Of a stretch of DNA of 64,000 bases, positions 4,116 to 51,669 are shown piece by piece. This DNA is from Bacteroidales bacterium. Lineage in GTDB: Bacteria > Bacteroidota > Bacteroidia > Bacteroidales > FEN-979. A program made the translations under genes and the position numbers. Where the stretch lies: contig JBMOIP010000001.1 in the NCBI GenBank assembly GCA_049317265.1, positions 140,685-204,684 on the forward strand, written 5' to 3'. Under the pieces are notes generated by a model. The model worked only from the letters and a program-made list of their open reading frames with translations, was not told where the DNA came from and ran no database searches. How positions within the stretch are numbered: position 1 is the stretch's first letter; the number at the start of each line of letters is the position of its first letter.

Positions 4116-5591
<1,476 letters not shown>

Positions 5592-5749: not shown

Positions 5750-5757
5750 TATATTTG
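5750..5757 (+). promoter_or_regulatory. Candidate -7 box (TATATTTG) for the REC-only gene
   Basis: Matches TAnnTTTG. It overlaps the TTG start proposed by the ORF track (5755), which argues for the ATG at 5782 as the real start. Confidence 0.4.
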
Positions 5758-5781
5758 AGCACACCATTTACAACTTTTGCC

Positions 5782-6210
5782 ATGATTGGATTATTTTCAA
5801 TTGATGATCATTTTCTCATTATTGAAGGCCTTGGCCGGGCATTCAATGCTGAGACCGACGATGTTGGCCTTGTTGGTTCGGCTACCAGCGTCGCAGAAGC
5901 CATTAAACAAATACCAAAGTGCCGTCCGAACATCATTCTCCTCGACCTCTTCATCGATGATGCCGATCCTGTTGCAAATTTCAAGCAACTGCACAGCGCT
6001 TTCCCTGAAATTCCGATCGTCATCCTCTCCATGGAGGATTCAATGAGATGGCAGATCAAAATGTTTAAATTGGGCGTCATGGCCTTTTTAAACAAATCCG
6101 AGAAAAAAGAGACCCTTAGAAGCGTCTTCATACAGGTTGCACAGGGAAATATGGTCATGCCCGAGAAGGTATCCCAGTCCCTGATATCGAAAACCATCTA
6201 TCCTAAATAG
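5782..6210 (+). CDS. Stand-alone response-regulator receiver (REC) domain protein, NarL-like receiver with no output domain
   Basis: All receiver residues are present: the acidic pair in FSIDDH, the phospho-acceptor in IILLDLFIDD, Ser in VILSMEDS and Lys in FLNKSEKK. The protein ends after about 142 aa with no HTH. Confidence 0.7.
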   Translation: MIGLFSIDDHFLIIEGLGRAFNAETDDVGLVGSATSVAEAIKQIPKCRPNIILLDLFIDDADPVANFKQLHSAFPEIPIVILSMEDSMRWQIKMFKLGVMAFLNKSEKKETLRSVFIQVAQGNMVMPEKVSQSLISKTIYPK

Positions 6211-6300: not shown

Positions 6301-9300
6301 ATGTTGCTCTCCGACGAAAACATTAGCCCCGGGAATGTGAATCCCGAAACAATCGATTTGAAGCAACTGGTTTATGAAAACCAGGAGCGCCTCAAGGAGT
6401 TGGCTGCCATTAATGATACGTCGGTAATTATCAGGGCCGGAAAACCCATCCCCGAAACACTGAATGAGATTTGCCAGATATTGCCAAATGCGTGGCAATA
6501 CCCCGGACATACTGTCGCCCGGATCAGGTTTGAAGATATGGAGTTTACAACTCCCGGATTCGTGGAAACCCCATGGAAACAGGAACAACTCTTTGACACC
6601 ATTGATAACCTGCACGGAACCATCACGGTTTTTTACCTCAAAGAGTTCAGGGAGTGTGATGAAGGTCCCTTTCTGAAGGAAGAACGTAACCTGGTGATTA
6701 ACCTTGCCATCCTGATTGAGGGATACATCAACGGGGTAAAAGGCAGGGAAGGAAGGTACATCACCCGCGAACGGCTTAAGGAGCTGGCAGCGATCAACCA
6801 AACCACCGCGATACTTCGCACAGGTAAACCCATTGAAGAAGCGCTGCACCAGATTTGCCTCATCCTTCCCAAGGCATGGCAATACCCCGAATACACGGCA
6901 TGCCGGATCCGGTATGGCAACATCGAGGTAAAAACACCGGCATACCGGGAATCTGAGTGGTCACAGAAACAGGACTTTGAAACAATTGATAACCAGCATG
7001 GTTATATCCAGATTTGCTATCTGAAAGCATTTCAAACATCCTTTGAAGGTCCGTTCCTCGAAGAAGAACGCCACCTCATCATCAACCTTGCCAACATCAT
7101 CACCGGTTACCTCAACTCTGTTAAAGGACAGGCCATCCTACGCAGGACACAGCGTGAAACCAGCCAGCCCAAAGAGGACCCCTCCATCCCGGTGAAGTAC
7201 AGCCGGCAACTGCTGCAAACATTCCTTAACCGTACCAACTACAACCGCGACCTCTATCACGACCTGATGCCATTCAAAGTGAAGGAGATCCTGCTGGTTG
7301 CAAATTTGTATGATGCCTACAGCATCGAAAAAGAGGGGCGGTTTTCAGAACATGTCCTCGGTGAATTCTACTCCTTGAGTCTCAGTACGATGCCACGCAT
7401 CACCGGGGTTTCTACTACCACGGAGGTGATGGAACAGCTCAGCAACAAACACTACGACCTGATCATTGTAATGATCGGCTCTGACAAGCATTTCCCGCTC
7501 GATCTCAGCGAAAAGGTAAAGGAACTCTACCAGTATATCCCGGTTTTCCTGCTGCTCAACAGCAACTCCGATATTGCCGTGTATGAAGAGGAACCGGAAA
7601 AGCTGAGTTGCATCGACCGTATCTTTGTTTGGAATGGTGATTCGAAGATATTCTTTGCGATGATCAACTACCTGGAGGACAAGATCAATGTGGAGAACGA
7701 TACCAACATTGGCATGGTAAGGGTGATCTTGCTGGTAGAGGATTCTTCAAAATACTATTCGCTTTACCTGCCGATGCTCTACAACATCGTTCTGGAACAA
7801 ACCAAAAACATCATCGAGGATGTGACCACCGATGAGCTTTACCGCATCCTGCGGCTCAAAGCACGCCCTAAAATCCTGCTGGCATCAACCTACGAAGAGG
7901 CGATCTATATTTTCAACAAATACCGCGATAACATCCTGTGTCTCATTTCGGATGTCAAGTTTAAAAAGGATGGAAAACTGAATGATACCGCTGGATTCAG
8001 CCTGGTAAAGCAGACACGGAATGAACTGTACGACCTTCCCATTGTCCTGCAATCATCCGACGAATTCAATGCACAGAAGGCTTACGAGCTGAAAGCATCC
8101 TTTATCAATAAAAATTCGGAAACCCTCCTGGTCGACTTCAGGAGTTTTATCACGCATTACCTTGGTTTTGGGAATTTCATCTACCGTGACAAGGAGGGTG
8201 GACAAATTGCGGTGGCAAAGTCACTCAAGGAGTTTGAAGACCTGCTCAAGACCATCCCCGAGGAGTCGCTGCTATATCATGCCAGGAAGGACCATTTCTC
8301 CCTCTGGCTCATGGCCCGCGGGGAGATCCAGGTAGCCAAGATCCTCAATCCTGCTAAAGTCACCGACTTCAAAGATCCTGCGTCACTGCGTGAATACCTC
8401 TTCAATGTCATTCAGAATTTCAGGAATGAGCAGAACATCGGAAAGGTGATCCCGTTTGAAGAGTCGTGCATCATGGACGAGCACAACATCCTGGCGCTCA
8501 CTGAAGGAGCGCTTGGCGGAAAGGGAAGGGGTCTTGCATTCGTTAACACGCTGATATACAACTATGATTTTGCCAAGCATGTGCCGAATATCAACATCCG
8601 CACACCCAAAACATCCATCATCGGAACCGATGAATTTGAGTATTTCCTCGACCGGAACAAACTACGGGAGAAGGCTGTTTATGAATCCGATTACGATCAG
8701 ATCAAACGGTGGTTTATCGAAGGAAGGTTAACCGATACGTTGATCCGCAAGTTAAAACTAATCATCAAGCATCTTAATAAACCTCTGGCAATCAGGTCTT
8801 CCGGCCTTTTTGAGGATTCTCAGAACCAGCCATTTGCCGGAATTTTTGAGACCTACCTGATCCCCAACAACCATCCTGATCCTGCCATCCGGCTCGACCA
8901 GCTAATGGATGCCATAAAACTGGTTTATGCTTCCGTTTACTCCCCAACTGCCAAAGGTTATATCGAAGCGGTCAATTACCGCATCGAGCAGGAGAAGATG
9001 GCAGTCGTCATCCAGGAGGTAGTGGGTAACCGCTACCAGGATGTCTTTTATCCCCACATCAGCGGGGTGGCGCAATCATTTAACTACTATCCATTTGCCC
9101 ACATGAAGCCTGAGGAAGGCTTTGCTGTAGCCGCGCTGGGACTTGGCCGCTATGTGGTGGAAGGAGAGAAGGCTTTCCGCTTTGCGCCGATGTATCCGAA
9201 CCTGGAGATCAATTCAGCCAAAGACCAGTACAAAGGTTCGCAGGTCTATTTTTATGCCGTTGACCTTCAGAAACAGGATGTCAACCTGCTCGAAGGAGAG

Positions 9301-10179
9301 GATGCCGGGTTGCGGAAACTTGACATTTATGATGCCGAGATGCATGGCACCCTCAAACATCTTGCATCCGTATATTCCCAGGAGAATGACCGCATTTCGG
9401 CGGGGTTGCGCGACGCAGGGCCACGGGTGGTGAACTTTGCCGACATCCTGAAATACAACTACATCCCCATGGCGAAAACCATTGAGGTAGTGCTTGATGT
9501 AGTCAAAGAGGCCATGGGGTCGCCGGTGGAAATTGAATTTGCCATCGACCTCAACAGGGATGAAAATTATAAAGCCTCGTTTTACCTTCTCCAGATCAAA
9601 CCGCTGATCGGAAATGTAGCCGACTTTGTCATCGATATGGATAAGATCGATAAAGATGAAATTCTGCTCTATTCGGAAAAGGAGATGGGAAATGGGATGA
9701 TCGATACCATCGAGGAGGTGGTTTTTGTGGATCCTGACACGTTCGACAAGGGTAAAACCATAGAAATGGCCGAGGAGATCGAAAAGATCAACCGCGAGAT
9801 GGGGGCAGCCGGCAAAAAGTACATCCTCATCGGCCCCGGGCGATGGGGAACGCGCGACCGGTGGATCGGGATCCCTGTCGTATGGCCGCAGATCAGCAAC
9901 GCAAAGGTGATTGTTGAGACCAGCCTCGAAGGTTTCCCTCTGGACGCCTCCTCAGGCTCGCATTTTTTCCACAATGTCACCTCGATGAATGTGGGCTATT
10001 TTTGCGTTCAACCTGAACTTTCCGACAGTTTCATCCGTTACGATGTACTTAACCAGCAAAAAAATATCCGTAAAACCAACTATTTCACCATCGTAACATT
10101 CGACAAACCACTCACCGTGCGAATGGACGGAAAAAAACGCATCTCCGTCATCACCTGGCCCAACCCACTTAACACTTAA
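6301..10179 (+). CDS. Multidomain signalling protein: 2x WQYP-type sensor module, pseudo-receiver, receiver, then a PEP/pyruvate-binding (PPDK_N, ATP-grasp) domain
   Basis: PPDK_N hallmarks are present: LGGKGRGLAFVN, PLAIRSSGLFEDSQNQPFAGIFETYL and VEIEFAIDL...YLLQIKPL. The second REC has VILLVEDS, LISDVKF, VLQSSD and FINK. The first REC-like region (ILLVANLYD, DLIIVMIG) lacks the acidic pocket and the acceptor Asp. I saw no phosphohistidine swivel domain. Confidence 0.75.
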   Translation: MLLSDENISPGNVNPETIDLKQLVYENQERLKELAAINDTSVIIRAGKPIPETLNEICQILPNAWQYPGHTVARIRFEDMEFTTPGFVETPWKQEQLFDTIDNLHGTITVFYLKEFRECDEGPFLKEERNLVINLAILIEGYINGVKGREGRYITRERLKELAAINQTTAILRTGKPIEEALHQICLILPKAWQYPEYTACRIRYGNIEVKTPAYRESEWSQKQDFETIDNQHGYIQICYLKAFQTSFEGPFLEEERHLIINLANIITGYLNSVKGQAILRRTQRETSQPKEDPSIPVKYSRQLLQTFLNRTNYNRDLYHDLMPFKVKEILLVANLYDAYSIEKEGRFSEHVLGEFYSLSLSTMPRITGVSTTTEVMEQLSNKHYDLIIVMIGSDKHFPLDLSEKVKELYQYIPVFLLLNSNSDIAVYEEEPEKLSCIDRIFVWNGDSKIFFAMINYLEDKINVENDTNIGMVRVILLVEDSSKYYSLYLPMLYNIVLEQTKNIIEDVTTDELYRILRLKARPKILLASTYEEAIYIFNKYRDNILCLISDVKFKKDGKLNDTAGFSLVKQTRNELYDLPIVLQSSDEFNAQKAYELKASFINKNSETLLVDFRSFITHYLGFGNFIYRDKEGGQIAVAKSLKEFEDLLKTIPEESLLYHARKDHFSLWLMARGEIQVAKILNPAKVTDFKDPASLREYLFNVIQNFRNEQNIGKVIPFEESCIMDEHNILALTEGALGGKGRGLAFVNTLIYNYDFAKHVPNINIRTPKTSIIGTDEFEYFLDRNKLREKAVYESDYDQIKRWFIEGRLTDTLIRKLKLIIKHLNKPLAIRSSGLFEDSQNQPFAGIFETYLIPNNHPDPAIRLDQLMDAIKLVYASVYSPTAKGYIEAVNYRIEQEKMAVVIQEVVGNRYQDVFYPHISGVAQSFNYYPFAHMKPEEGFAVAALGLGRYVVEGEKAFRFAPMYPNLEINSAKDQYKGSQVYFYAVDLQKQDVNLLEGEDAGLRKLDIYDAEMHGTLKHLASVYSQENDRISAGLRDAGPRVVNFADILKYNYIPMAKTIEVVLDVVKEAMGSPVEIEFAIDLNRDENYKASFYLLQIKPLIGNVADFVIDMDKIDKDEILLYSEKEMGNGMIDTIEEVVFVDPDTFDKGKTIEMAEEIEKINREMGAAGKKYILIGPGRWGTRDRWIGIPVVWPQISNAKVIVETSLEGFPLDASSGSHFFHNVTSMNVGYFCVQPELSDSFIRYDVLNQQKNIRKTNYFTIVTFDKPLTVRMDGKKRISVITWPNPLNT
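6379..7128 (+). repeat. Intragenic tandem duplication of a ~125-aa sensor module (aa 27-154 and 155-276)
   Basis: NQERLKELAAINDTSVIIRAGKPIPETLNEICQILPNAWQYPGHTVARIRF...PFLKEERNLVINLAILIEGYINGVKG aligns with TRERLKELAAINQTTAILRTGKPIEEALHQICLILPKAWQYPEYTACRIRY...PFLEEERHLIINLANIITGYLNSVKG. By eye they are roughly 55-60% identical with no gaps. Confidence 0.85.
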
Positions 10180-10201
10180 TCACTTAACACTTAATCACTT
10201 A
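10166..10201. repeat. Tandem CACTTAA / CACTTAAT repeat (5 units; 15-bp super-unit x2.4)
   Basis: CACTTAA CACTTAAT CACTTAA CACTTAAT CACTTA is read directly. It contains the TAA stop of the upstream gene (10177-10179) and ends 6 nt before the ATG at 10207. Confidence 0.9.
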
Positions 10202-10206
10202 TTGTA

Positions 10207-10725
10207 ATGCGAATACCACGTATCAACACCAAACAAGAAGCCGTTAGCGGCGATGACCAGGACCTGAGCCTGCTGGATCCCATCATTGCAAAACATAAGG
10301 GAAAAAAGGGGAACCTCATCCCGTTGTTACAGGGAGCCCAGGAACTGTATGGCTTTATCTCGAAAGCCGCATTTGAAAAGCTGTCACGTGAAACCGGCAT
10401 TCCATTGAGCGACATGTTTGGGGTGGCAACCTTCTATGCCCAGTTCCGCCTCAACCCGGTTGGGAAAAATATCATTAAAGTGTGTCACGGTACGGCCTGC
10501 CATGTGCAAAATGCCGTCGAAATTACCGAATCGCTCGAAGAAATGCTGAAGGTGAAGGATGGAGAGACCACCGAAGACCGGTTCTTCACCCTTGAATCTG
10601 TCGCCTGCCTTGGCTGCTGCTCCCTCGCCCCGGTGATGATGATCGGCGACCAGACCTATGGCAAACTCACAGGCAATGAAGCTGTGAAAATCGTGAAGAA
10701 CATCAGGCTGGCCGAAAATAACTGA
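10207..10725 (+). CDS. NuoE/HndA/HydC-like [2Fe-2S] thioredoxin-fold subunit
   Basis: LIPLLQGAQELYGFIS, CHGTACHV and CLGCCSLAPVMMI give the four-Cys pattern of NuoE-type 2Fe-2S proteins. Confidence 0.85.
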   Translation: MRIPRINTKQEAVSGDDQDLSLLDPIIAKHKGKKGNLIPLLQGAQELYGFISKAAFEKLSRETGIPLSDMFGVATFYAQFRLNPVGKNIIKVCHGTACHVQNAVEITESLEEMLKVKDGETTEDRFFTLESVACLGCCSLAPVMMIGDQTYGKLTGNEAVKIVKNIRLAENN

Positions 10726-10777
10726 ACAGCGAAATAGCGTACATCGTAAAATTAAAATCACAAAATCGTAAATTGAT

Positions 10778-12553
10778 ATGGTTACTACCGTCACTGTAGG
10801 TTTGGGAAGCTGCGGGATCGCCGCTGGTGCAAGTAAAACCTACGAAAAGATCAAAGCGCTGAAGGAATCCGACAAACTCGATTTCGAACTCAAAAAAACC
10901 AGTTGCGTGGGCATGTGCTACCGCGAACCATTGGTGGAAATTACCGATGAAACAGGTACTTACCTCTATGGTGAGGTGGATGCCGACCGTGCGGTGGAGG
11001 TGATTGAGAAACACATCAACCAGCAGGACCCCATCCGTGATTACATTGTGTATACCGACCTGTTCGATGCCCCTGAAAACGATTTTATCGGGGCCCAGGT
11101 GAAGATCGTGCTGCGCAATTGTGGTTACATGGATCCGGAATCCATCGAAGAATATGAATCAAGGGATGGCTATAAAGCCATTAAAAAAATTGCCTCCGAA
11201 AATACCGGGAGGGAAGTGGTCATAGACACCATTCTGAAATCGGGACTTCGCGGCAGGGGCGGTGGCGGTTTCCCCACCGGCCTCAAGTGGAAATTTGCCA
11301 ATGCCAACAAATCTGCCGATAAATATGTGATCTGCAATGCCGATGAAGGCGACCCCGGTGCATTCATGGACCGTTCGGTACTGGAGGGCGACCCCCATTC
11401 AGTGCTCGAAGGGATGATCATCGCAGCATATGCCATCGAAGCAACCGGTGGCGTGATCTATTGTCGTGCCGAGTATCCGCTGGCCATCAAACGGCTGAAT
11501 ATCGCCATCAAACAGGCACACGACAGGGGATACCTTGGGAAAAACATCTTCGGAATTGAAGGATTCAACCTCGATATCTACATCAAGGAGGGCGCCGGTG
11601 CCTTCGTGTGCGGTGAAGAGACCGCCCTCATCGCATCCATCGAAGGTGAACGAGGAATGCCGCGTAAAAGACCACCTTTCCCGGCTGTTTCAGGATTGTG
11701 GAAGAAGCCGACCAACATCAACAACGTCGAAACCTTTGCCAACATTCCATGGATCATCATGAATGGCGCCGAAGCATATGCACAATACGGAACCGAGAAG
11801 AGCAAGGGAACCAAGGTGTTCGCCCTCGCAGGGAAAGTATGCCATTCCGGCCTTGTTGAAGTACCGATGGGAATGACCATCCGGGATGTGATTTTCAAAC
11901 TGGGCGGCGGGATCAAGAACAATAAAAAATTTAAAGCTGTTCAGATGGGGGGGCCTTCGGGAGGATGTATCCCCGAATATCTCTCTGATACCATCGTGGA
12001 TTATGATTCGGTGAACGCAACCGGCGCCATCATGGGTTCCGGCGGCATGGTGGTAATGGACGAAACTACCTGTATGGTGGATGTCGCCAAGTTCTTCCTC
12101 GATTTTACCTGCAAGGAGAGCTGTGGAAAATGTACTTTCTGCAGGATGGGCACAAAGAGAATGCTCGAAATCCTCGACCGGATCACCAATGGCCATGGAA
12201 AAGAGGGCGATCTCGAAAAGCTTGAAGAGCTGGCTTACCAGATCAAGGATAACTCTTTGTGCGGACTCGGACAAACTGCTCCAAACCCGGTGCTTACTAC
12301 CATCCGCTATTTCAGGGATGAGTATGAAGCCCACATCAACCATAAAAAATGCCCTGCCAAAGTTTGCCGCCCGCTGCTGACCTACAAAGTGGATGAAGAG
12401 AAGTGCACGGGGTGCATGGTTTGTCTGAAAAACTGCCCTGTGAAAGCCATCACCGGCGAGCGCAAGCAAAAGCACCTGATCAACCAGGATCTCTGCACAA
12501 AATGCGGTGTATGCTTCTCCAAGTGCAAATTTGAATCCATCCTGCTATCATAA
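10778..12553 (+). CDS. NuoF/HndC/HydB-like NADH- and FMN-binding subunit with extra N- and C-terminal Fe-S domains
   Basis: The N-terminal thioredoxin-like 2Fe-2S has GLGSCGIAAG...CVGMCYREP. The FMN/NADH site is GLRGRGGGGFPTGLKW, and the N3 cluster region is ESCGKCTFCR. The C-terminal 2x[4Fe-4S] ferredoxin has CTGCMVCLKNCP...CTKCGVCFSKC. Confidence 0.9.
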   Translation: MVTTVTVGLGSCGIAAGASKTYEKIKALKESDKLDFELKKTSCVGMCYREPLVEITDETGTYLYGEVDADRAVEVIEKHINQQDPIRDYIVYTDLFDAPENDFIGAQVKIVLRNCGYMDPESIEEYESRDGYKAIKKIASENTGREVVIDTILKSGLRGRGGGGFPTGLKWKFANANKSADKYVICNADEGDPGAFMDRSVLEGDPHSVLEGMIIAAYAIEATGGVIYCRAEYPLAIKRLNIAIKQAHDRGYLGKNIFGIEGFNLDIYIKEGAGAFVCGEETALIASIEGERGMPRKRPPFPAVSGLWKKPTNINNVETFANIPWIIMNGAEAYAQYGTEKSKGTKVFALAGKVCHSGLVEVPMGMTIRDVIFKLGGGIKNNKKFKAVQMGGPSGGCIPEYLSDTIVDYDSVNATGAIMGSGGMVVMDETTCMVDVAKFFLDFTCKESCGKCTFCRMGTKRMLEILDRITNGHGKEGDLEKLEELAYQIKDNSLCGLGQTAPNPVLTTIRYFRDEYEAHINHKKCPAKVCRPLLTYKVDEEKCTGCMVCLKNCPVKAITGERKQKHLINQDLCTKCGVCFSKCKFESILLS

Positions 12554-12602
12554 TTTTTCACATTTCGCATTTCACATTTCAAATTTCACATTTCACATTT
12601 TT
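12554..12602. repeat. Heptamer tandem repeat ATTTCAC (about 7 units) filling the intergenic spacer
   Basis: TTTTTCA CATTTCG CATTTCA CATTTCA AATTTCA CATTTCA CATTTTT lies between the TAA at 12551-12553 and the ATG at 12606. The ORF-track N-terminal extension (HFAFHISNFTFHIF) is simply a translation of this repeat. Confidence 0.9.
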
Positions 12603-12605
12603 TCT

Positions 12606-15600
12606 ATGTCAGACAATTCATTAAACATCATACTCAACGGTAATATCGTTAAAGGTTTCCAGGGTGAAACCATTCTGGAACTCGCTAACCGCCATGGAAT
12701 TGAGATCCCTACTTTGTGCAATGACGAGCGCCTCGAACCATTTACCTCCTGCTACGTTTGTGTTGTGGAGGTAGAGGGGATGCGCGGGCACCAACCCTCC
12801 TGCTCTACCAAACTCACAGAAGGGATGAAGATCATCACCGATAATGAAGGGATTCGGAAGTCGAGGAAAATGGCGCTGGAGCTGATGCTCAGCAACCATT
12901 ATGCCGACTGCATCGGCCCCTGCAAGCAGACCTGTCCTGCCGGTGTCGACGTACAGGGCTATATCTCCCTGATCGACAAGGGGCAGTACAGTGAAGCTGT
13001 TGCGCTGATCAAAGAGACTAATCCTTTGCCTGCCATTTGCGGTCGGGTATGCGTCCGCCCATGCGAAACCGAATGCCGCCGCAACCTTCTCGACGAAGGC
13101 GCCCCGGTTGGCATCGACTACCTGAAGCGGTTTGCATCAGACTACGACCTGGCGTCTCCGGATAAATATGTACCTAAGGTAAAACCATCGACTGGGAAAA
13201 AAGTAGCAGTGATCGGCGCCGGACCTGGCGGTTTATCTGTTGGCCATTTTATGCAGATTGAGGGTCACCAGGTGGATATCTACGAAGCCGCCCCCAAATC
13301 GGGTGGATGGCTGCGCTATGGAATTCCCGAATACCGCCTGCCAAACGACATTCTTGACCAGGAGGTAAAGAACATCACCGATCTCGGGGTCAATATCTTC
13401 TACAATAAAAAGCTGGGCGAAAATGTCAGCTATAAGGAGCTGAAATCCTCCTATGATGCGACAGTTCTGACCATCGGTTCACAAAAAGGGACCGGTGTGG
13501 GCTGTGAAGGCGACGATGCCGGCAATGTGTTTTCAGGAATCGACTTCCTGAAAAACATGGAAGTTACCGGTCAACGGTACGATTTCCGCGGGAAGACCAT
13601 TGCCGTGGTGGGTGGAGGAAATACAGCCATGGACTGCTGCCGTACTTCGATCCGTTGCAAAGCTGATAAAGTATATGTGATCTATCGCCGCACCGAAAAA
13701 GAGATGCCGGCCAACCCGATCGAAATTCATGAATCGAAGCTGGAAGGTGTTGAATACCTGTTTCTTACACTACCAAAGAAGATCAATAAAAACGCTGCCG
13801 GGGAGGTGGAGTCTGTAACCTGTATCAAGATGGAACTCGGTGAACCGGATGCCTCCGGACGTCGCCGACCGGTGCCGGTTGAAGGCTCCGATTTCGAACT
13901 TCCTGTAAACTATATTCTCGCAGCCATCGGACAGAAAACCGAGGTGAATTTCATCGACGACATCAATAACCATACTGAAACCGGGGAGTTGAAAATAAAT
14001 AAGTGGGGTGACATTGATGCCGACAAGGCAACCCTGCAGACAGGAATTCCTTCGATGTTCGCTGCCGGTGATGGTGTTACAGGTCCCGCCACCATCATCG
14101 AGGCCATTGCCCAGGCACGGATCGCCTCCACCAGCGCTCACCAGTACCTGATGGGATTGCCGATTCAACCGGTTAAAAAGCCCTTTACGAGTAAACGTGA
14201 TAATTTCAAAAAACAACAAAAGGATGCGTACCTCGGAAATTTTGAAACCCAGGTCCGTGAGGAGATGCCAACGCTGCCCGCCGATGCCCGTTTTAACTTC
14301 AACGAAGTGGAACTGGGGTATGACGGCGCCGAAGTAGCCCACCATGAAGCCCAACGTTGCCTGGAGTGCGGCTGTGTCGCTTTTCTCGATTGCGATCTGC
14401 AGAAATATTCAAGCGAATACAACGCTCAGCAGAAATCCTTTGAAGGAGAATTCAGGGAGTACCAGGTTGATTTCCGCCATCCATACATTGAGATCGACAA
14501 CAACAAATGTATCCTTTGTGCCCGCTGCGTGCGTATTTGCCGCGAAGTTGTCGGCGCCAATGCCCTTGGATTGATCAACCGTGGTTTTCATACCTATGTT
14601 GCACCAAGCATGGGAGAAGCGCTGCAGGACACCCAGTGCGAATCCTGCGGGATGTGCATCTCTACCTGTCCTACCGGTGCGATCACCGAGAATGTACTGT
14701 TCAAACCTGGTCCTGTCAAGTCCGATCCCGTTGCGACCATCTGCAACTACTGCTCAGTGGGATGTGCCATTGAATTACATCAGAAGAATGGTTTTATTCT
14801 GGGCGCTACAGGAAAAAAAGGACTGATCAACCAGGATGGCAACCTCTGCAGGTTACCGAAGTTTGGATATCAATACCTTAATGATCTCACCCGTATCACC
14901 AAACCGTTGCTGAAAGTCAACGGAAAGTTCGAAGAGATCACTTTTGAAAAGGCATTTCAGCTGATCAGGGAGAAGATCAAGGCGGTGAAACCCAATGAAA
15001 ACGCATTTTTCGGCGGGGCAAGGTTATCGAATGAAGAACTCTACCTTGTTCATAAACTAGCCCGTGGCGCTGCAAAGACCAATAACATAGGCAGTTTTCA
15101 TTACCTCGGAAGGGGTGAGGGTTACCGCAGCAATTGCGAACTCAATGCACCATTTGCTGAAATCGGCGGGGCCAGTGCACTTTATCTCCTGGGAACCGAG
15201 ATCAACAGGGATCATGCGGTGGTGGGGTTCATGGTTCAGAATGCGCACCATATGAAGAAGACCCCGGTCATCATGGTTACGGAAAAGGCCGACAATGTCA
15301 TGTCGCACAAGGTCACCAGGCAGATTGTCGTAAAATCCTACTACCATTTTGTCAAGGCGGTGAACCACTACCTCCTCTCCAAAGGATTGGAAAATGCACT
15401 GTTCCTCCGCGACCGCGTTGAAGGATTTGAAGGGTATAAAGCGATGCTGCTGAAAGAGGATTTCGATGCACTGGTTACCGCTTCCGGTATCACCTCTGCT
15501 GAAATAGCCACTTTTGCTGAAGCTTATAACAATGAAATCAACGCCATCCTGGTGTTTTCTGAAAAGGAGGCCTCTGGCAATACATCCAAGGAGTTGTTCA

Positions 15601-16316
15601 ACCTGGCCAGGATTACCGGCAAACTTGGCAAGTCGGCCAACGGCTTGATCGCGCTGAAGGAGAAGAATAATTCACAGGGTGTATTTGATATGGGGGTTAG
15701 TCCGCATCTTGGAATCGGCGGCCAGGATATCGCCGACACTGAATACACCAACAGGCTTAAAGAGAAGTGGGGCCTTACCGAAATCGCCGGTGAAGATACC
15801 GAGTGTCTCCACGGAATCCTTTCTGAGGGCAGTGTCCGCAACCTCTTTATTTTTGGTGAAGACCCTATCGGATGTGCCATCGACCGTTCATCCATTGAGA
15901 AGGTCTTTTCCCAGGCTACATTTAAAGTTGTGCAGGATTTTTTCCTCACAGATTCAGCCAAAGCGGCCGACCTGGTGTTGCCCGCGTCTCTTCCTGTTGA
16001 AATAGGCGGCACTTTTACAAACGCCCAAAAAGTCATCCAGGATTTTGAAAAAGTACTGAACTCGCGCATTTCAAAAACTTCATTGCAGCAATTTGCCGGA
16101 ATTCTAAGCGAATTTGGAATGAATACACCTGAAAATCCACGCGATATCTTTATGGAAGTGATTACATTGCTGCCCGGAAAGAAAGACCATGGCAAACTGC
16201 TGATGCGCCCTACCAGGGAAGATAATAACAAACGCCATTACAACCATGGCTGCGACATGATCACCATGCGTTTTGAAGAAGAGTTTCAATCATCCATCGT
16301 CAACCATCAATCGTAA
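12606..16316 (+). CDS. 1236-aa fusion: [2Fe-2S] ferredoxin domain, GltD-like NAD(P)H/FAD module, then a NuoG/FdhA-like Fe-S and molybdopterin-fold domain (catalytic Cys/Sec apparently absent)
   Basis: The N-terminal 2Fe-2S domain has IEIPTLCNDERLEPFTSCYVCVVEV. GltD signatures are CPAGVDVQGYISLI...NPLPAICGRVCVRPCETECRR and the Rossmann motifs VAVIGAGPGGLSVG and IAVVGGGNTAMDC. Next come CLECGC, NNKCILCARCVRIC and CESCGMCISTCP, then the molybdopterin-type 4Fe-4S CNYCSVGC. I take the start at the ATG at 12606, after the heptamer repeat. Confidence 0.8.
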   Translation: MSDNSLNIILNGNIVKGFQGETILELANRHGIEIPTLCNDERLEPFTSCYVCVVEVEGMRGHQPSCSTKLTEGMKIITDNEGIRKSRKMALELMLSNHYADCIGPCKQTCPAGVDVQGYISLIDKGQYSEAVALIKETNPLPAICGRVCVRPCETECRRNLLDEGAPVGIDYLKRFASDYDLASPDKYVPKVKPSTGKKVAVIGAGPGGLSVGHFMQIEGHQVDIYEAAPKSGGWLRYGIPEYRLPNDILDQEVKNITDLGVNIFYNKKLGENVSYKELKSSYDATVLTIGSQKGTGVGCEGDDAGNVFSGIDFLKNMEVTGQRYDFRGKTIAVVGGGNTAMDCCRTSIRCKADKVYVIYRRTEKEMPANPIEIHESKLEGVEYLFLTLPKKINKNAAGEVESVTCIKMELGEPDASGRRRPVPVEGSDFELPVNYILAAIGQKTEVNFIDDINNHTETGELKINKWGDIDADKATLQTGIPSMFAAGDGVTGPATIIEAIAQARIASTSAHQYLMGLPIQPVKKPFTSKRDNFKKQQKDAYLGNFETQVREEMPTLPADARFNFNEVELGYDGAEVAHHEAQRCLECGCVAFLDCDLQKYSSEYNAQQKSFEGEFREYQVDFRHPYIEIDNNKCILCARCVRICREVVGANALGLINRGFHTYVAPSMGEALQDTQCESCGMCISTCPTGAITENVLFKPGPVKSDPVATICNYCSVGCAIELHQKNGFILGATGKKGLINQDGNLCRLPKFGYQYLNDLTRITKPLLKVNGKFEEITFEKAFQLIREKIKAVKPNENAFFGGARLSNEELYLVHKLARGAAKTNNIGSFHYLGRGEGYRSNCELNAPFAEIGGASALYLLGTEINRDHAVVGFMVQNAHHMKKTPVIMVTEKADNVMSHKVTRQIVVKSYYHFVKAVNHYLLSKGLENALFLRDRVEGFEGYKAMLLKEDFDALVTASGITSAEIATFAEAYNNEINAILVFSEKEASGNTSKELFNLARITGKLGKSANGLIALKEKNNSQGVFDMGVSPHLGIGGQDIADTEYTNRLKEKWGLTEIAGEDTECLHGILSEGSVRNLFIFGEDPIGCAIDRSSIEKVFSQATFKVVQDFFLTDSAKAADLVLPASLPVEIGGTFTNAQKVIQDFEKVLNSRISKTSLQQFAGILSEFGMNTPENPRDIFMEVITLLPGKKDHGKLLMRPTREDNNKRHYNHGCDMITMRFEEEFQSSIVNHQS

Positions 16317-16320
16317 ATCA

Positions 16321-16776
16321 ATGAAGGAGTTCAACAACATAACCGAGATCCTCGACTTTGCCATCGGGGAGGAGCAGGCGGCCGTAGATTTTTATCTGCA
16401 CCTTGCCAGTCAGTCAAAAAACAAGCAGACTCAGAAAATATTTGAGGAGTATGCCGAAGAGGAGATGCGGCACAAAGCCAACCTCCTGTCCGTTAAGGAG
16501 AGTGGCAGTTTCATGCTTTCAGATGCAAAGGTCAAAGATCTCCGGATCGCTGAATACCTTGTGGATGTGAAACCTTCGGCCAATATGTCGTACCAGGATG
16601 CCCTTATCCTTGCCATGAAAAAGGAGAAGGCTGCATTCAGGATGTATTCCAAACTTGCTGAAAAGGCCGATGATCCTGATGTAAGGGAGCTATTCCTGAA
16701 GCTTGCCATGGAAGAGTCAAAACATAAACTTGCCTTTGAAGTGGAATATGATGATTTCATCCTGAAGGAAAACTAA
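16321..16776 (+). CDS. Rubrerythrin/ferritin-like di-iron four-helix-bundle protein (no rubredoxin domain)
   Basis: Paired E...ExxH motifs are present (EEQAAVDFY...EEEMRHK and KKEKAAFRMY...MEESKHK). I take the start at MKEFNNITEIL, 4 nt after the upstream stop codon. Confidence 0.6.
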   Translation: MKEFNNITEILDFAIGEEQAAVDFYLHLASQSKNKQTQKIFEEYAEEEMRHKANLLSVKESGSFMLSDAKVKDLRIAEYLVDVKPSANMSYQDALILAMKKEKAAFRMYSKLAEKADDPDVRELFLKLAMEESKHKLAFEVEYDDFILKEN

Positions 16777-16792
16777 CAAGTAATATCACCAC

Positions 16793-16846
16793 GAAGGCGC
16801 AAAGCCGCAAAACTATTTCCGATTTTTTTGCGTTCTTTGCGCCTTC
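16793..16846 (+). terminator. Long two-tier hairpin after the rubrerythrin-like gene
   Basis: GAAGGCGCAAAG (16793-16804) pairs perfectly with CTTTGCGCCTTC (16835-16846). An inner stem forms between CGCAAAA and TTTTGCG. The structure lies 17 nt after the stop codon. Confidence 0.55.
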
Positions 16847-47450: not shown

Positions 47451-47645
47451 TAATTTAATTTCTGATTAACAAGCCAATTCCTTAAAAAAACAAATAAATC
47501 TTGGCGATCTGCAAGGATATTGATGGAGATCGCGGCTGAAGTGCAGGATTGGAAATAAATGCCCGTGCAAATTTACAATAAATTCCATGCCCTCCCCCGG
47601 AATAATAAATCAGCGACAGATTAGAAAAATGACCCGGATTTTGCG

Positions 47646-47653
47646 TAAGTTTG
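47646..47653 (+). promoter_or_regulatory. Candidate -7 box (TAAGTTTG) for giant paralog 1
   Basis: It lies 36 nt upstream of the ATG at 47689 and inside the ORF-track extension. This argues for 47689 as the start. Confidence 0.4.
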
Positions 47654-47688
47654 TAACATTATCAGCAATTTATAGTTTAAATAACAGG

Positions 47689-50600
47689 ATGAATTTTTAC
47701 AAGGACAGGTTAAGTGGAATATTCTGGAGAACACTGGCATTTTGTCTTCTGCTGCCGGGATTCTTTCTCCTGCCCTTGCATTTCTATGCCTTGACAATGC
47801 CTTTTTCCCCCGCTGTATTGCAGGGTATTGTTACAAACGGGGCAAATGGATTGCCGGTGGTGGGTGCAAAAATCTCCGTCAACGGAACTTTCACCTGGTC
47901 CACCTCGGGAGGAATATACACCATTGCCATCAATCCGGCCGGGACCTTCCAAGTTTCCTGTGTAAAGCCGGGGTTCGAAAACTATCTATCCGCACCGGTT
48001 GTTTTTCAGCCTGGTGGTACTTCGCTGTTAAATATCCAGTTATGGGAGAGCCTTAATCCTCCCGGCAATGTCAATGTTTCTCATGATACCGTTTCCCAGT
48101 CGGTTGCAGTCGCATGGAGTTCCCCGTCAGGCGCATATGAATTGCTGTATGACGATGGTTTGCCTGATAATTTCGCCCTCTGGACTACCCAGGGGAATAT
48201 GAATGCACTCAAATTTACTCCGGTTGGATTTCCGGTAAAACTTACGGGAGGAGCCATTCATATTGGTTCAGTCTCCAATTATCCCCCGGGAAGCAACCCC
48301 CTGACCCCTTTCCAGGTGAGGATTTACGATGCCGCCGGCGCCGGTGGTTCACCTGGAAACAGTATTGCAGGTCCGTTTAATGTGGTGCCGGCAGGCTTTG
48401 GGTGGGTTGAATTCACATTGCCTGCGCCGGTGTCCATCAGCAATGGCTCTTTCTATATCGTGATGGTCCAGGGGGGGAATGCGCCAAATGCATCAGGTAT
48501 AGCCGTCGACGAAACAAATCCGCAATACAGGAGCTATTCCAGGTTTGTCAGTGGGGGAGGTCCCTGGTATCCGGCCGGGGGTAATTTTATGATCAGGGCA
48601 AAATGTGAGGGTTCCGGAGGACCTGTCTTTCTCGCAGAGGATCCGGTCAATGCCGGTGTCAGCAACGTATACCGGCTGCGCCAGGGTGAGGAGCAGAATC
48701 CTTCAGCATGGACGCCTGTTGGAACGACCAATTCAACAATGATCACCGATACCAGCTGGTTTTCACTTCCCTGCGGACCTTACCGGTGGGGTGTGAAAGT
48801 GCAATATTCCGGCAATCGCTGGTCGCCTGTTGCCTTTTCAAACATCCTTGGTAAATGCTGGACCGCCCCTGTGAATATCCACCTCGATCTAAGTTGTGAC
48901 AGCGCTAAAAGAGAAGGAACCTCCCTTCGGCTTGTGAATGCTGCCTATCCCGACACTGCCTATGCAGCGGTTTTCGATACGGCGGGAAACATCACATTGC
49001 CGCATGTATGGAAAGGCACCTACCAGCTGACCATTGTAAAGTTCGGATTTGACTCAATTATTCAATCTGTCCCCGTGGTGGCGCCGGTTTCCCTGAACCT
49101 GGTTCTCCTGCAGGTGAAAATTGCGCCGGCAAACCTGGTGGTGAACGACAGCAGCCTGATGGCGAGGTGGGATGTTCCTCACTTTGAAAGTAACCTTTTC
49201 ACTGAAGATTGGGCCACAGGTTCCCTAACAGCCAATTCATGGACGATAGAAGGTGGTTCCAACTGGGCAATATCGACAGCGGTTGGCAATCCTTTTCCTT
49301 CTGTCATGTTCGGAACAACCCCGGCGCAATCAAATTATTCACAGTTTTTAACCAGTAAAACGATTTCGGGGCAGCACTCCACCCTGCTGAAACTCAGGTA
49401 CGATATTTTCCTCGACAATTATGGCACCACCACCCTGAACCAGATGGCGGTGGAGATCTGGGACGGATCTGTGTGGCATACCCTTGAAAATCACACAAGT
49501 TCCGGCGGAGATATTCCATGGACCAGTGCAGATATCGACATTTCCGGGTATACCGCGATGGATTTTAAAATCCGGTTCCATGCTTTTGGAGGCGATACAA
49601 GGGATATCAACAACTGGAACATCGACAACATTGAAGTGGTCGCTTCTGAACCTGCTCAGGAACAGGCTGATTGCATCCTCGGATACTATTTCTATCTTGG
49701 GAATGTGATCAGCGGGTACACCACCAAGAATGCTTACCCGATTCCAGGGAACCAGGTCCAGTTCGGACAGACCTATACCGCCTGCGTCAGGGCCCTGTAT
49801 GGCAGCGGGTATTCCGATTCTGTCTGCACAACTTTCACCTCCGGGTTCCTCTACCCGGTAAGGAACCTCCATGGATATCCCATTGAAAATGCCGCTTTTA
49901 TAGCCTGGGAGAAACCCCAGGAAGCTACAGATTCCACCCTGGGAGTCCCTCCCGGGCTTACCGGGTATACCATCACACGTGGCGACAGTGTAATAGCCAC
50001 CGTCAGCAACCCCGACTCATTGACTTTCTACGATTTCGGACTTGAGCCCGGTTATTACACGTATGGTGTAGCTGCAAACTATGACCTGACCAGTTATGGT
50101 TTTCCGGGGCAGTCAGGTCAAAGCATACCAGCCGGCCCGTTGCACCTTACCATCAACTGGGGAAGACAGCTTCCCTTTTATGAATCCTGGGATGCCGGGG
50201 TGTTTTCATTCAACGAATGGAGGTTTACACCTTCACAGGGAAACTGGATTATCGATCCCAACGAAGGACTTCCGTCGCCGGCTGCAAATTTCCGGTGGCA
50301 ACCCCCTGTGGTTGATTATGACTATGCCCTCGAAAGTCCTCCTTTCAACGGGTTGCCTTTTAATTGTGCTGCCATCTGGCTGGATTTCGACCTGAAACTC
50401 AACGACCGTAACTATACCGGAACAGAAAAAATGTTCGTCGAAGCTTATTACAACAATGCCTGGCATAAAAAGGCTGAAATCAAAAATACCGGCAGCATTC
50501 CCTGGACAAACTACCATATCGACATCAGTTCCGCGCGAGGGAAGGGATTCAGGGTGCGATTCAGGGCCTCTGGACAGAATTCATCTGAAATCCTCAACTG

Positions 50601-51669
50601 GTTTATCGATAATGTCAGCATCTATCCGGTATGCTATCCTGCAGCTGACCTTGAGGGAGCGCCGGTTGGCAGCGAAATCCACCTGACCTGGAGTCCTCCC
50701 GCATGTTATGGGGGAAATATTTTAAACGAGGGATTTGAAGGGATCTTTTTCCCCCCGGCACAATGGACAAAACAAACGGCCAATCCATCAGCCACATGGT
50801 CGCATTCCACAGTCAATTCTCTTACGGGGGTTCATCACGGAGACTATTCGGCCGGGGTGAACTGGGACTATAATCACCAGGATGAGTGGCTTATCGCCAA
50901 TAATATCTATGTAAATGGCGATCTTACCTTCTGGAGTTATACCTACCAGGGATCACTCCACCTGGATCACTATTATTTAAAAGTATCGGCCGACCAGGGA
51001 AACACATGGGATATAATGATGGATATGTCTGCACTTCCTCCATATCCCGGGCCATCGGGAATAAACGCATGGATCACGCCGTATCACGTCGATCTCTCCA
51101 TGTACGATGGCGAAACAATTGATATCGCATGGCATGCAGTTGATGGAGACGGAAACGGGCTGTGGTATCCATGGGCGATTGACGATTGTTCGATTGGTGC
51201 CGATGATCACCGTCAAACAATCCTGGGATATGATGTATACAGGAAAAACCCCGGAGCTAATTTCTACGGAAAAATAAATACAACACCGGTTACAGACACC
51301 GCCTGGACAGACAGTGGACTTCCGCTGGGACAATACAGGTATTTCGTTCAGGCACAGTTTGCAGAGTGTGTCAACTCTTCAAATTCTGATACAGTATTGG
51401 TTGACCTCGTTACAGGAACCGGAAGCTTCATGGAGCATAAAATGATGGTTTACCCCAATCCGGTTACCGACCATTTTACCATAGAAAGCGCAGCAGATAT
51501 ACTGGAAGTCAGCCTGTTCACCGCCGACGGAAAAATTGCCGGAAACTGGTCACCCGCAGGCACCCGCAAAATAACCATTGAAGCAACCTCATTGCATTCC
51601 GGTTTATATTTGCTCATGATCCGTAACCGGGCAGAGACAAGATTCCTGAAAATCAATGTAATTAAATAA
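47689..51669 (+). CDS. Giant T9SS cargo protein, paralog 1 (1326 aa): CarboxypepD_reg-like, beta-sandwich, FN3-like and MAM/choice-of-anchor-J-like modules, with a T9SS CTD
   Basis: A hydrophobic N-terminus is followed by GIVTNGANGLPVVGAKISVNG. Modules shared with paralogs 2 and 3 include YDDGLPDNFALW and FYESWDAGVFSFNEWRF...WLDFDLKLNDRNYTGTEKMFVEAYYNNAWH...FRVRFRASG. The C-terminus MVYPNPVTDHFTIES...GLYLLMIRNRAETRFLKINVIK is a T9SS type-A CTD. Confidence 0.75.
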   Translation: MNFYKDRLSGIFWRTLAFCLLLPGFFLLPLHFYALTMPFSPAVLQGIVTNGANGLPVVGAKISVNGTFTWSTSGGIYTIAINPAGTFQVSCVKPGFENYLSAPVVFQPGGTSLLNIQLWESLNPPGNVNVSHDTVSQSVAVAWSSPSGAYELLYDDGLPDNFALWTTQGNMNALKFTPVGFPVKLTGGAIHIGSVSNYPPGSNPLTPFQVRIYDAAGAGGSPGNSIAGPFNVVPAGFGWVEFTLPAPVSISNGSFYIVMVQGGNAPNASGIAVDETNPQYRSYSRFVSGGGPWYPAGGNFMIRAKCEGSGGPVFLAEDPVNAGVSNVYRLRQGEEQNPSAWTPVGTTNSTMITDTSWFSLPCGPYRWGVKVQYSGNRWSPVAFSNILGKCWTAPVNIHLDLSCDSAKREGTSLRLVNAAYPDTAYAAVFDTAGNITLPHVWKGTYQLTIVKFGFDSIIQSVPVVAPVSLNLVLLQVKIAPANLVVNDSSLMARWDVPHFESNLFTEDWATGSLTANSWTIEGGSNWAISTAVGNPFPSVMFGTTPAQSNYSQFLTSKTISGQHSTLLKLRYDIFLDNYGTTTLNQMAVEIWDGSVWHTLENHTSSGGDIPWTSADIDISGYTAMDFKIRFHAFGGDTRDINNWNIDNIEVVASEPAQEQADCILGYYFYLGNVISGYTTKNAYPIPGNQVQFGQTYTACVRALYGSGYSDSVCTTFTSGFLYPVRNLHGYPIENAAFIAWEKPQEATDSTLGVPPGLTGYTITRGDSVIATVSNPDSLTFYDFGLEPGYYTYGVAANYDLTSYGFPGQSGQSIPAGPLHLTINWGRQLPFYESWDAGVFSFNEWRFTPSQGNWIIDPNEGLPSPAANFRWQPPVVDYDYALESPPFNGLPFNCAAIWLDFDLKLNDRNYTGTEKMFVEAYYNNAWHKKAEIKNTGSIPWTNYHIDISSARGKGFRVRFRASGQNSSEILNWFIDNVSIYPVCYPAADLEGAPVGSEIHLTWSPPACYGGNILNEGFEGIFFPPAQWTKQTANPSATWSHSTVNSLTGVHHGDYSAGVNWDYNHQDEWLIANNIYVNGDLTFWSYTYQGSLHLDHYYLKVSADQGNTWDIMMDMSALPPYPGPSGINAWITPYHVDLSMYDGETIDIAWHAVDGDGNGLWYPWAIDDCSIGADDHRQTILGYDVYRKNPGANFYGKINTTPVTDTAWTDSGLPLGQYRYFVQAQFAECVNSSNSDTVLVDLVTGTGSFMEHKMMVYPNPVTDHFTIESAADILEVSLFTADGKIAGNWSPAGTRKITIEATSLHSGLYLLMIRNRAETRFLKINVIK

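Follow-up and report, generated by a model that had tools for sequence, protein, structure and literature searches.

A putative Stn/NfnABC-type electron-bifurcating transhydrogenase operon with a conserved gene neighbourhood in a Bacteroidales bacterium

A 64,000-nucleotide (nt) stretch of contig JBMOIP010000001.1, hereafter the window, from the metagenome-assembled genome (MAG) of a Bacteroidales bacterium carries at positions 10207-16776 four co-oriented genes on the plus strand. The first three of them, here called nfnC, nfnB and nfnA, most probably encode an electron-bifurcating transhydrogenase of the Stn/NfnABC type (Nfn-Bfu, Type 1 Bfu), which would act as an NADH-dependent reduced-ferredoxin:NADP+ oxidoreductase. 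Based on sequence homology, domain architecture, ligand conservation and synteny, we put the probability of this assignment at roughly 0.86. An earlier note on the same DNA had proposed a Stn/Nfn-type bifurcating transhydrogenase, and this proposal was strongly supported, as the best Protein Data Bank (PDB) matches of all three subunits are Stn/NfnABC complexes. The same note had regarded the fused large subunit as a variant. We find instead that the fusion is the canonical architecture of the family, and that the operon is an uncharacterised Bacteroidales member of a well-described family. The assignment as such was thus right and the supposed architectural novelty is absent, while the conserved neighbourhood of the operon is mildly interesting. 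The coordinates of the genes, of the modules of the large subunit and of the neighbouring genes are collected in Table 1.

Table 1. Predicted genes and protein modules at the locus and in its neighbourhood (positions in the window; aa, amino acids).
Feature	Position	Strand	Size and evidence
nfnC / stnA (BfuC), NuoE/HydC-like subunit with gating [2Fe-2S] cluster C1	10207..10725	+	172 aa; PF01257 E 4.8e-48, PDB matches, Cys conservation
nfnB / stnB (BfuB), HydB/NuoF-like FMN- and NAD(H)-binding subunit	10778..12553	+	591 aa; PF01512, PF10589, Fer4; PDB scores
nfnA / stnC, fusion of 2Fe2S, GltD-like, NuoG-type Fe-S and Fdh-like modules	12606..16316	+	1236 aa from ATG
NfnA residues 1-100, N-terminal [2Fe-2S] domain	12606..12905	+	PF13510; aligns to StnC and NfnA N-termini
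NfnA residues 101-565, GltD/NfnL-like module: FAD, NADPH site, two [4Fe-4S] clusters	12906..14300	+	PF14691, PF07992
NfnA residues 566-700, NuoG-type Fe-S relay	14301..14705	+	PF22117; Cys motifs
NfnA residues 701-1236, pterin-less Fdh/NuoG-like domain, one [4Fe-4S] cluster	14706..16316	+	PF04879, PF00384
Rubrerythrin-like ("erythrin") diiron four-helix-bundle protein	16321..16776	+	151 aa; PF02915 E 5e-16
1292-aa syntenic neighbour, PAS/GAF-like tandem + REC-like + PPDK_N	6301..10179	+	PPDK_N E 7.6e-40
NADP-specific glutamate dehydrogenase, divergent neighbour	4116..5579	-	NCBIfam NF006929, 769 bits (cutoff 536)
Stand-alone response-regulator receiver protein	5755-6210	+	151 aa; PF00072 E 6.7e-15

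Three complexes of the family have been solved and assayed as bifurcating NADH-dependent ferredoxin:NADP+ oxidoreductases, namely StnABC of Sporomusa ovata (PMC7483475, PMC10482914), NfnABC of Caldicellulosiruptor saccharolyticus (PMC11829005) and Nfn-BfuABC of Thermococcus sibiricus (PMC12018979). In the PDB sequence search, NfnA of the window aligned with the C. saccharolyticus large subunit (9BOV_A/9BP5, 1178 aa) with an E-value of 6.4e-229 over query residues 16-1032 and 1070-1194, and nearly full length with chain C of the S. ovata complex (8OH5/8OH9, 1172 aa; E 2.5e-213). The first ~790 residues matched chain A of 9N5U (963 aa) from T. sibiricus with an E-value of 4.1e-181. Over the first 640 residues the identity is ~45% to C. 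saccharolyticus NfnA and ~43% to S. ovata StnC. The top PDB scores of NfnB were 875.7 bits (8OH5_B), 865.9 bits (9N5U_B) and 852.4 bits (9BOV_B), compared with 596-761 bits for HydB chains of NiFe/FeFe hydrogenases and at most 395 bits for chains of formate dehydrogenase (FDH) or complex I; by this score ranking, rather than by a tree, NfnB is nearest to the Nfn-type B subunits and not to those of hydrogenases or FDHs. For NfnC the three best matches were 9BOV_C, 9N5U_C and 8OH5_A. NAD-dependent FDHs and glutamate synthases, a placement with which had been named in advance as an argument against the assignment, matched single modules only and at much lower scores.

The order of a NuoE-like gene, a NuoF-like gene and a gene for a 1236-aa fusion, together with the coordinates of the open reading frames (ORFs), was exactly as described before. 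Spacers of 52 nt separate both nfnC from nfnB and nfnB from nfnA, and the rubrerythrin-like gene does begin 4 nt past the fusion gene, whose stop codon is TAA. A longer ORF with a GTG start at 12507 overlaps nfnB, and no homologue backs this start over the ATG at 12606. The NCBI gene products MFZ4520155.1, MFZ4520156.1 and MFZ4520157.1 of the same MAG are identical to the three subunits in length and sequence and lie on a 315-kb contig, and the NCBI product for the diiron protein (P0001) is identical as well. The public product names are "NuoE", "NADH-ubiquinone oxidoreductase-F domain protein", "molybdopterin-dependent oxidoreductase" and "ferritin family protein", the first three of which are better read as nfnCBA / stnABC.

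The large subunit had been considered unusual on the premise that the Stn scaffold is HydA-like and that a molybdopterin fold takes its place here. This premise is false. The published NfnA has been described as an N-terminal domain, an NfnL-like part and an Fdh/NuoG-like part with an incomplete pterin site (PMC11829005), without a C-terminal beta-barrel (PMC12018979). As the Stn/NfnABC large subunits share this pterin-less Fdh/NuoG-like fusion, the architecture in the window is canonical and not a variant. It is also common: a family-size scan with NfnA residues 1-1200 against 1.84 billion representatives of 50%-identity clusters showed that nearly all of the best 150 matches are 950-1400 aa in size and align from residue ~5 through the Fe-S relay or beyond. 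Papers that appeared from 2020 to 2025 described the enzyme family together with its architecture, mechanism and three cryo-EM structures, and a 2022 paper already mentioned its occurrence in Bacteroidetes.

The Pfam analysis returned seven of the eight domains that had been listed beforehand for the three subunits, in the stated order, while PF10588 and PF22117 fall outside that list. In NfnA the order is PF13510-PF14691-PF07992-PF22117-PF04879-PF00384, and PF10588 is present only as a 16-residue fragment (E 1.5e-4, under its cutoff). The cofactor ligands were audited in alignments to the solved chains and to 72-75 Bacteroidales orthologue sequences from related genomes, so that the conservation counts refer to 75 sequences for NfnA (the window and 74 orthologues) and to 73 for NfnC (72 orthologues and the window). 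The NfnA ligands of the N-terminal [2Fe-2S] cluster (C38, C49, C52, C66), those of the GltD module (C102, C106, C110, C145, C149, C153, C157 and K174) and those of the relay (the motif C585-x2-C-x-C-x5-C596 and two CxxCxxCxxxC motifs at 635-645 and 678-688) are 100% conserved. Together with the Molybdop_Fe4S4 ligands of the Fdh-like domain (C713, C716, C720, C748), the ligand sets fit the one [2Fe-2S] and six [4Fe-4S] clusters of the long bacterial form, all being at least 99% conserved; cluster names are given to the individual NfnA motifs by analogy only.

A complete GltD-like module with two Rossmann GxGxxG motifs (GAGPGG at 204-209, GGGNTA at 336-341) lies between the 2Fe-2S and NuoG-like parts, in agreement with the first description of the sequence. 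The motif YRR of the NADPH-binding fold (360-362, within YRRT at 360-363) is invariant, as is R244, the equivalent of R239 in S. ovata. K174 aligns with K170 of both S. ovata and C. saccharolyticus (K165 in T. sibiricus), which is the unusual and essential Lys ligand of the FAD-proximal [4Fe-4S] cluster, and C110, C149 and C153 align with C108, C147 and C151, the partners of the Lys ligand. The module is homologous to that of NfnSL/NfnAB of Thermotoga maritima (4YLF) and Pyrococcus furiosus (5JCA), with an E-value of 4.9e-96 to 4YLF_B over residues 105-517, and the overall reaction of these enzymes is the same. However, NfnSL belongs to a different family, in which FAD itself bifurcates, the proximal-cluster ligand is Glu and not Lys, the partner is the small NfnA/S, and there is no HydBC-like core. 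According to Kremp 2020, genomes with Stn hardly ever contain NfnSL as well, the two being almost mutually exclusive.

The C-terminal module of NfnA is where an NAD(P)-linked FDH or other molybdopterin oxidoreductase has to be considered, along with a glutamate-synthase small-subunit system for the GltD-like part. The PF00384 and PF04879 matches and the NCBI name "molybdopterin-dependent oxidoreductase" point in this direction, as do partial NCBIfam matches to the Fdh-alpha and GltD families, all of them under their cutoffs, and FDH alpha subunits match NfnA residues 619-1191 with E ~1e-75. However, the C-x-R-x-[C/U]-H active-site stretch with the Cys/Sec and His of the Mo/W site is replaced by GSFHYLGRG (829-837), the catalytic-Arg motif reads LKEKNNSQG (1017-1025) when aligned to LRGQNNVQG of FDH, and the NfnA chain stops where domain IV would start (~FDH residue 763-806), with no match to PF01568. 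Across the 64-kb window there is no H-cluster domain, FDH accessory gene or membrane Nuo gene, as the earlier note had said, and there are likewise no molybdenum cofactor (Moco) accessory genes, no other nuo genes and no GltB. In addition, S. ovata StnC had been annotated as a formate dehydrogenase and was negative when tested for formate oxidation. This reading is therefore extremely improbable. An NAD-dependent FDH of the FdsABG / FdhF type is refuted at the sequence level by the missing active-site motifs and domain IV, and glutamate synthase (GltBD) was rejected with the GltD-like part being internal to the fusion. FdsABG of Rhodobacter capsulatus (6TG9) does share the three-module logic of NuoE-, NuoF- and NuoG-like parts, and its relay and molybdopterin-fold domains I-III are homologous to those of the window protein (E 2.7e-74). 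On the other hand, the Mo-ligand Cys-His, domain IV and the pterin are lacking in the window protein, while FdsA has no GltD module and FdsB no C-terminal 2x[4Fe-4S] domain.

Within NfnA, conservation is lowest in the Fdh-like domain, with a column mean of 0.60 against ~0.81 elsewhere. By analogy with the solved complexes, this domain appears to be a pterin-less, non-catalytic relic whose role is that of a scaffold for structure and tetramerisation. The chain ends with the motif H-Y-N-H-G-C-D (residues 1211-1217, window 16236-16256; general form Y-x-x-G-C-D). Within the Bacteroidales clade, C1216 of this motif reaches 99% conservation. The residue is also present in a representative with 62% identity (P0258), and the motif is absent from two more distant family members (P0280, 1178 aa, and P0283, 1172 aa). 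In C. saccharolyticus NfnA the side branch has its last Fe-S cluster close to the C-terminal residue, and the tail of the window protein may thus contact that cluster.

NfnB matched PF01512 (E 1.6e-47) and PF10589 (E 1.5e-35) and contains two Fer4 motifs. The glycine-rich loop for flavin mononucleotide (FMN) and NAD(H), GLRGRGGGGFPTG, is found at residues 156-168. The ligands of the B1 [4Fe-4S] cluster (C449, C452, C455, C495) and the CxxCxxCxxxC motifs of the C-terminal 2x[4Fe-4S] domain (B3/B4; 543-553 and 573-583) are 100% conserved. In the Zn (B2) region, H519, C525 and C530 are invariant and align with S. ovata, C. saccharolyticus and T. sibiricus. In the family this Zn site has three Cys and one His, and the three residues are candidates for the His and two of the Cys. 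In NfnC the C1 ligands C93, C98, C134 and C138 are 100% conserved in the 73 sequences. Two extra domains had been ascribed to the NuoF-like subunit, and the C-terminal one was confirmed by its two motifs. The label "2Fe-2S" for the N-terminal one is not secure: this thioredoxin-like domain scored under the Pfam cutoff (22.5 vs 24.8 bits), and its B5 site consists of C12, C43, C47 and E50 (3Cys+Glu), all 100% conserved. The same pattern holds Zn in the C. saccharolyticus and T. sibiricus structures (PMC11829005, PMC12018979) and was modelled as [2Fe-2S] in S. ovata. Judged by the pattern, the metal at B5 in the window protein may be either Zn or [2Fe-2S].

An alternative reading is a Stn-like but non-bifurcating NADPH-linked oxidoreductase (plain NADPH:ferredoxin or NADPH:NAD+) that has lost energetic coupling. 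In its favour, B5 may hold Zn rather than a cluster. Uncoupled side activities of this kind (NADPH:NAD+, NADPH:viologen) are known from Stn itself. However, the C. saccharolyticus and T. sibiricus enzymes bifurcate with Zn at B5, and the minimal bifurcation site is therefore [B1-FMN-C1]. Loss of coupling is very unlikely, because every residue of this minimal site is conserved here, as are the ligands of the ferredoxin-reducing B3/B4 clusters.

Two further assignments were tried and rejected for the three genes. A bifurcating [FeFe]-hydrogenase of the HydABC type is at odds with the lack of an H-cluster domain in Pfam, and HydA chains match the relay only (~586-734). A respiratory complex I N-module (NuoEFG) does not fit with the absence of other nuo genes from the window and with the presence of both extra domains in the B subunit.

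By analogy with the solved homologues, the following mechanism can be proposed for a reaction that is reversible. NADPH would bind to the GltD/NfnL-like module of the 1236-aa subunit and reduce the non-bifurcating FAD, from which single electrons would pass via the Lys-ligated [4Fe-4S] cluster and the Fe-S chain to B1 and FMN of the HydB-like subunit. Bifurcation would then take place at the FMN/B1/C1 centre of the BfuBC core. In one branch NAD+ would be reduced to NADH at FMN, and in the other, low-potential branch the NuoE-like subunit with its mobile [2Fe-2S] domain would deliver the electrons to the C-terminal 2x[4Fe-4S] domain, at which ferredoxin would be reduced. In a fermentative Bacteroidales cell the confurcating direction is likely, i.e., Fd(red) + NADH + 2 NADP+ -> 2 NADPH. 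The operon probably shows how anaerobic Bacteroidales balance their NADH, ferredoxin and NADPH pools, and the adjacent NADP-specific glutamate dehydrogenase (NADP-GDH) would be a plausible sink for NADPH, or a source of it during amino-acid catabolism.

Several points weigh against the assignment to Stn/NfnABC. The activity data for the family come from outside Bacteroidota. The differences in sequence from the characterised enzymes are minor. The second-sphere, alternative cluster ligand C114 of S. ovata and C. saccharolyticus is Val116 in the window protein, which has Cys145 instead; the latter is invariant in the clade, Ser in S. ovata and C. saccharolyticus, and Cys in T. maritima NfnB. 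The Fdh-like domain retains an FDH-like segment (~1033-1069) that is missing from the S. ovata and C. saccharolyticus proteins, and it scores 194-203 bits against true FDHs, close to the 231-233 bits against StnC/NfnA. The domain is less eroded than its counterparts in the two bacterial complexes. The tightly linked diiron gene is absent from the characterised operons, which leaves room for an extra partner. Finally, a scan for sigma-70 promoters and terminators did not rise above shuffled sequence (26 vs 19.7 and 21 vs 15.1, respectively) with a model that does not cover Bacteroidota promoters; the scan being uninformative, we infer co-transcription of the genes from the short spacers alone.

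StnABC of S. ovata (PDB 8OH5/8OH9; Kremp 2020, Kumar 2023) has three subunits with the domain composition of those in the window. Its StnC combines an N-terminal 2Fe2S domain with a GltD-like module, a relay of the NuoG type and an FdhF-like domain that is inactive. Both systems share the Lys ligand, the Arg at the FAD site and every cluster motif, and the B subunits align over 585 residues. However, NfnA of the window is 64 aa longer, including the segment mentioned above and the clade-specific C-terminal motif, the two Fdh-like domains differ far more than the first 640 residues do, its host is a Bacteroidales fermenter and not an acetogen, and the diiron gene is added to the operon. NfnABC of C. 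saccharolyticus (PDB 9BOV/9BP5; Commun Biol 2025) is the best overall match for the large and the C subunits and has an identical architecture with a pterin-less Fdh-like domain, as well as the 3Cys+Glu site in its B subunit. In contrast to the window system, it is a thermophilic enzyme from Firmicutes, and no diiron gene has been reported beside its genes. Nfn-BfuABC of T. sibiricus (PDB 9N5U/9N5V; JBC 2025) has a highly similar BC core, with an E-value of 2.5e-49 for the C subunit, and it shares the NfnL-like module with its Lys ligand and the Val at the position of C114. Its archaeal NfnA is ~270 aa shorter, with a truncated Fdh-like domain and one cluster fewer, and is monomeric, whereas the window encodes the long bacterial form.

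A one-genome-per-species scan found relatives in 312 genomes, and the best 80 loci (62-91% identity) were examined. The C-B-A gene order is kept in all 80 related loci with flanks present. The diiron gene lies directly 3' of nfnA in 54 of the 74 informative loci, at gaps of -14 to 161 nt, and in seven loci its start overlaps the nfnA stop. It is absent in ~18 loci with enough downstream sequence, and the clade with 62-65% identity is mixed (~11 with, 16 without). The ligands E18, E48, H51, E102, E132 and H135 are conserved among the orthologues of the diiron protein, which lacks a rubredoxin domain. Among PDB entries it matched best to TM1526 (1VJX, E 4e-5), itself uncharacterised, and the best 120 matches in a homologue search were all close relatives (at least 73% identity). 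The diiron gene is tightly linked to the operon, and its product is at most a candidate member of the complex.

Such a membership would turn the enzyme into a complex of four components, with the diiron protein docked on the transhydrogenase, e.g., at the Fdh-like "dead-end" Fe-S side branch, and draining electrons to H2O2 or O2. The result would combine Nfn-Bfu with the predicted Rub-Bfu, or resemble in activity the old "Nso" NADPH:sulfur/oxygen oxidoreductase. The close linkage and the invariant ligands agree with it, complexes of BfuBC with rubrerythrin have been predicted independently (Schut et al. 2022), and the homologous Nso of Thermococcus litoralis was first described as an NADPH-dependent sulfur/oxygen oxidoreductase. 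Moreover, the side branch has no assigned function in C. saccharolyticus or S. ovata, and an "overflow" role has been proposed for it in the literature. However, the loci without the gene show that it is dispensable, the characterised Stn/NfnABC complexes purify with three subunits, and rubrerythrin-like genes are common stress genes that often lie beside O2-sensitive Fe-S enzymes. We consider a docked diiron subunit unlikely. In its fullest form, and with the same low likelihood, the translationally coupled diiron protein, as a lineage-specific fourth partner, would take side-branch electrons and make the transhydrogenase also an NAD(P)H/ferredoxin-driven peroxide/oxygen reductase, under the control of the sensor-like PAS/GAF-REC-PPDK_N protein encoded upstream and coupled to NADP-GDH. 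If true, this would be the first concrete link between the Nfn-Bfu and the predicted Rub-Bfu functionalities.

The predicted Rub-Bfu itself (Type 4 Bfu; Schut et al. 2022) has a rubrerythrin-family gene just 3' of the Bfu cluster, as is the case in the window. It is, however, defined by the lack of BfuA, with the rubrerythrin gene right after bfuB, whereas here bfuB and the diiron gene are separated by a complete BfuA of the Nfn type and the diiron protein is without a rubredoxin domain. An assignment of the window genes to Rub-Bfu was rejected on the grounds of this intervening BfuA.

Upstream of the three-subunit transhydrogenase genes, the 1292-aa protein with a PPDK_N domain is encoded directly 5' of nfnC in 42 related loci, often at a distance of 11-33 nt, and in some more distant loci a copy with 33-41% identity lies downstream instead. 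It is annotated as "PEP/pyruvate-binding domain-containing protein" or "pyruvate, phosphate dikinase", and it has only the PPDK_N ATP-grasp domain (aa 737-1102), with no swivel or PEP-binding domains. Its N-terminal part is an internal tandem duplication (59% identity), and there is a weak match to a receiver domain (REC). An AlphaFold2 model of the duplication (pLDDT 77.5) was composed of two PAS/GAF-like sensor domains, for which DosP, GAF-PHY and PDE5 GAF were the top Foldseek hits (E ~5e-4); a PDB sequence search with the 1292-aa protein gave no match. The protein may regulate the redox module or act on it as a modifying kinase. At least 29 of the related loci have NADP-GDH as a divergent neighbour at the corresponding position, which suggests a functional link of the NADPH supply with glutamate metabolism. 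The receiver protein between the GDH and PPDK_N genes is kept only in the six closest loci. The conserved neighbourhood of NADP-GDH, the sensor-like PPDK_N protein and the diiron protein thus provides a testable lead on the regulation or the accessory functions of Bfu enzymes.

The best 80 loci come almost entirely from MAGs labelled Bacteroidales, Bacteroidota, Prolixibacteraceae or Draconibacterium, from anoxic waters and sediments. It has been mentioned that the Nfn-type BfuB (clade 53) occurs "also in Synergistetes and Bacteroidetes" (Schut et al. 2022), and our literature search on Stn/NfnABC in Bacteroidales found nothing specific. Two MAGs labelled Alphaproteobacteria bacterium and Thiohalospira sp. 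carry a Bacteroidales-type cluster (loci L026 and L048, 76% and 64% identity, respectively), which is more likely due to mis-binning of contigs or mislabelling of the MAGs than to horizontal transfer.

Two spacers at the locus, 10166-10195 and 12554-12605, contain short A/T-rich tandem repeats, the one between the PPDK_N gene and nfnC having two copies of CACTTAACACTTAAT and the one between nfnB and nfnA having CATTTCA-like heptamers. The related loci have other A/T-rich repeats at the same spacers, and the repeat sequences themselves are not conserved. Just 3' of the diiron gene, at 16793-16846, two 12-bp arms, GAAGGCGCAAAG ... CTTTGCGCCTTC, form a perfect inverted repeat around a T-rich loop of 30 nt. 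This repeat was not among the calls of the terminator scan, and the operon may have its 3' end here. Further away, MBOAT, GT2, sulfotransferase, AMP-ligase and DegT genes at 26-39 kb of the window make up a cluster for the modification of surface polysaccharides or lipids, and two giant secreted proteins of 1360 and 2106 aa with CarboxypepD_reg-like domains are encoded on the plus strand at 47587-51669 and 51838-58158. Both of the latter end with type IX secretion system (T9SS) C-terminal sorting domains, and the T9SS sorting domains in the window agree with a Bacteroidota origin of the sequence.

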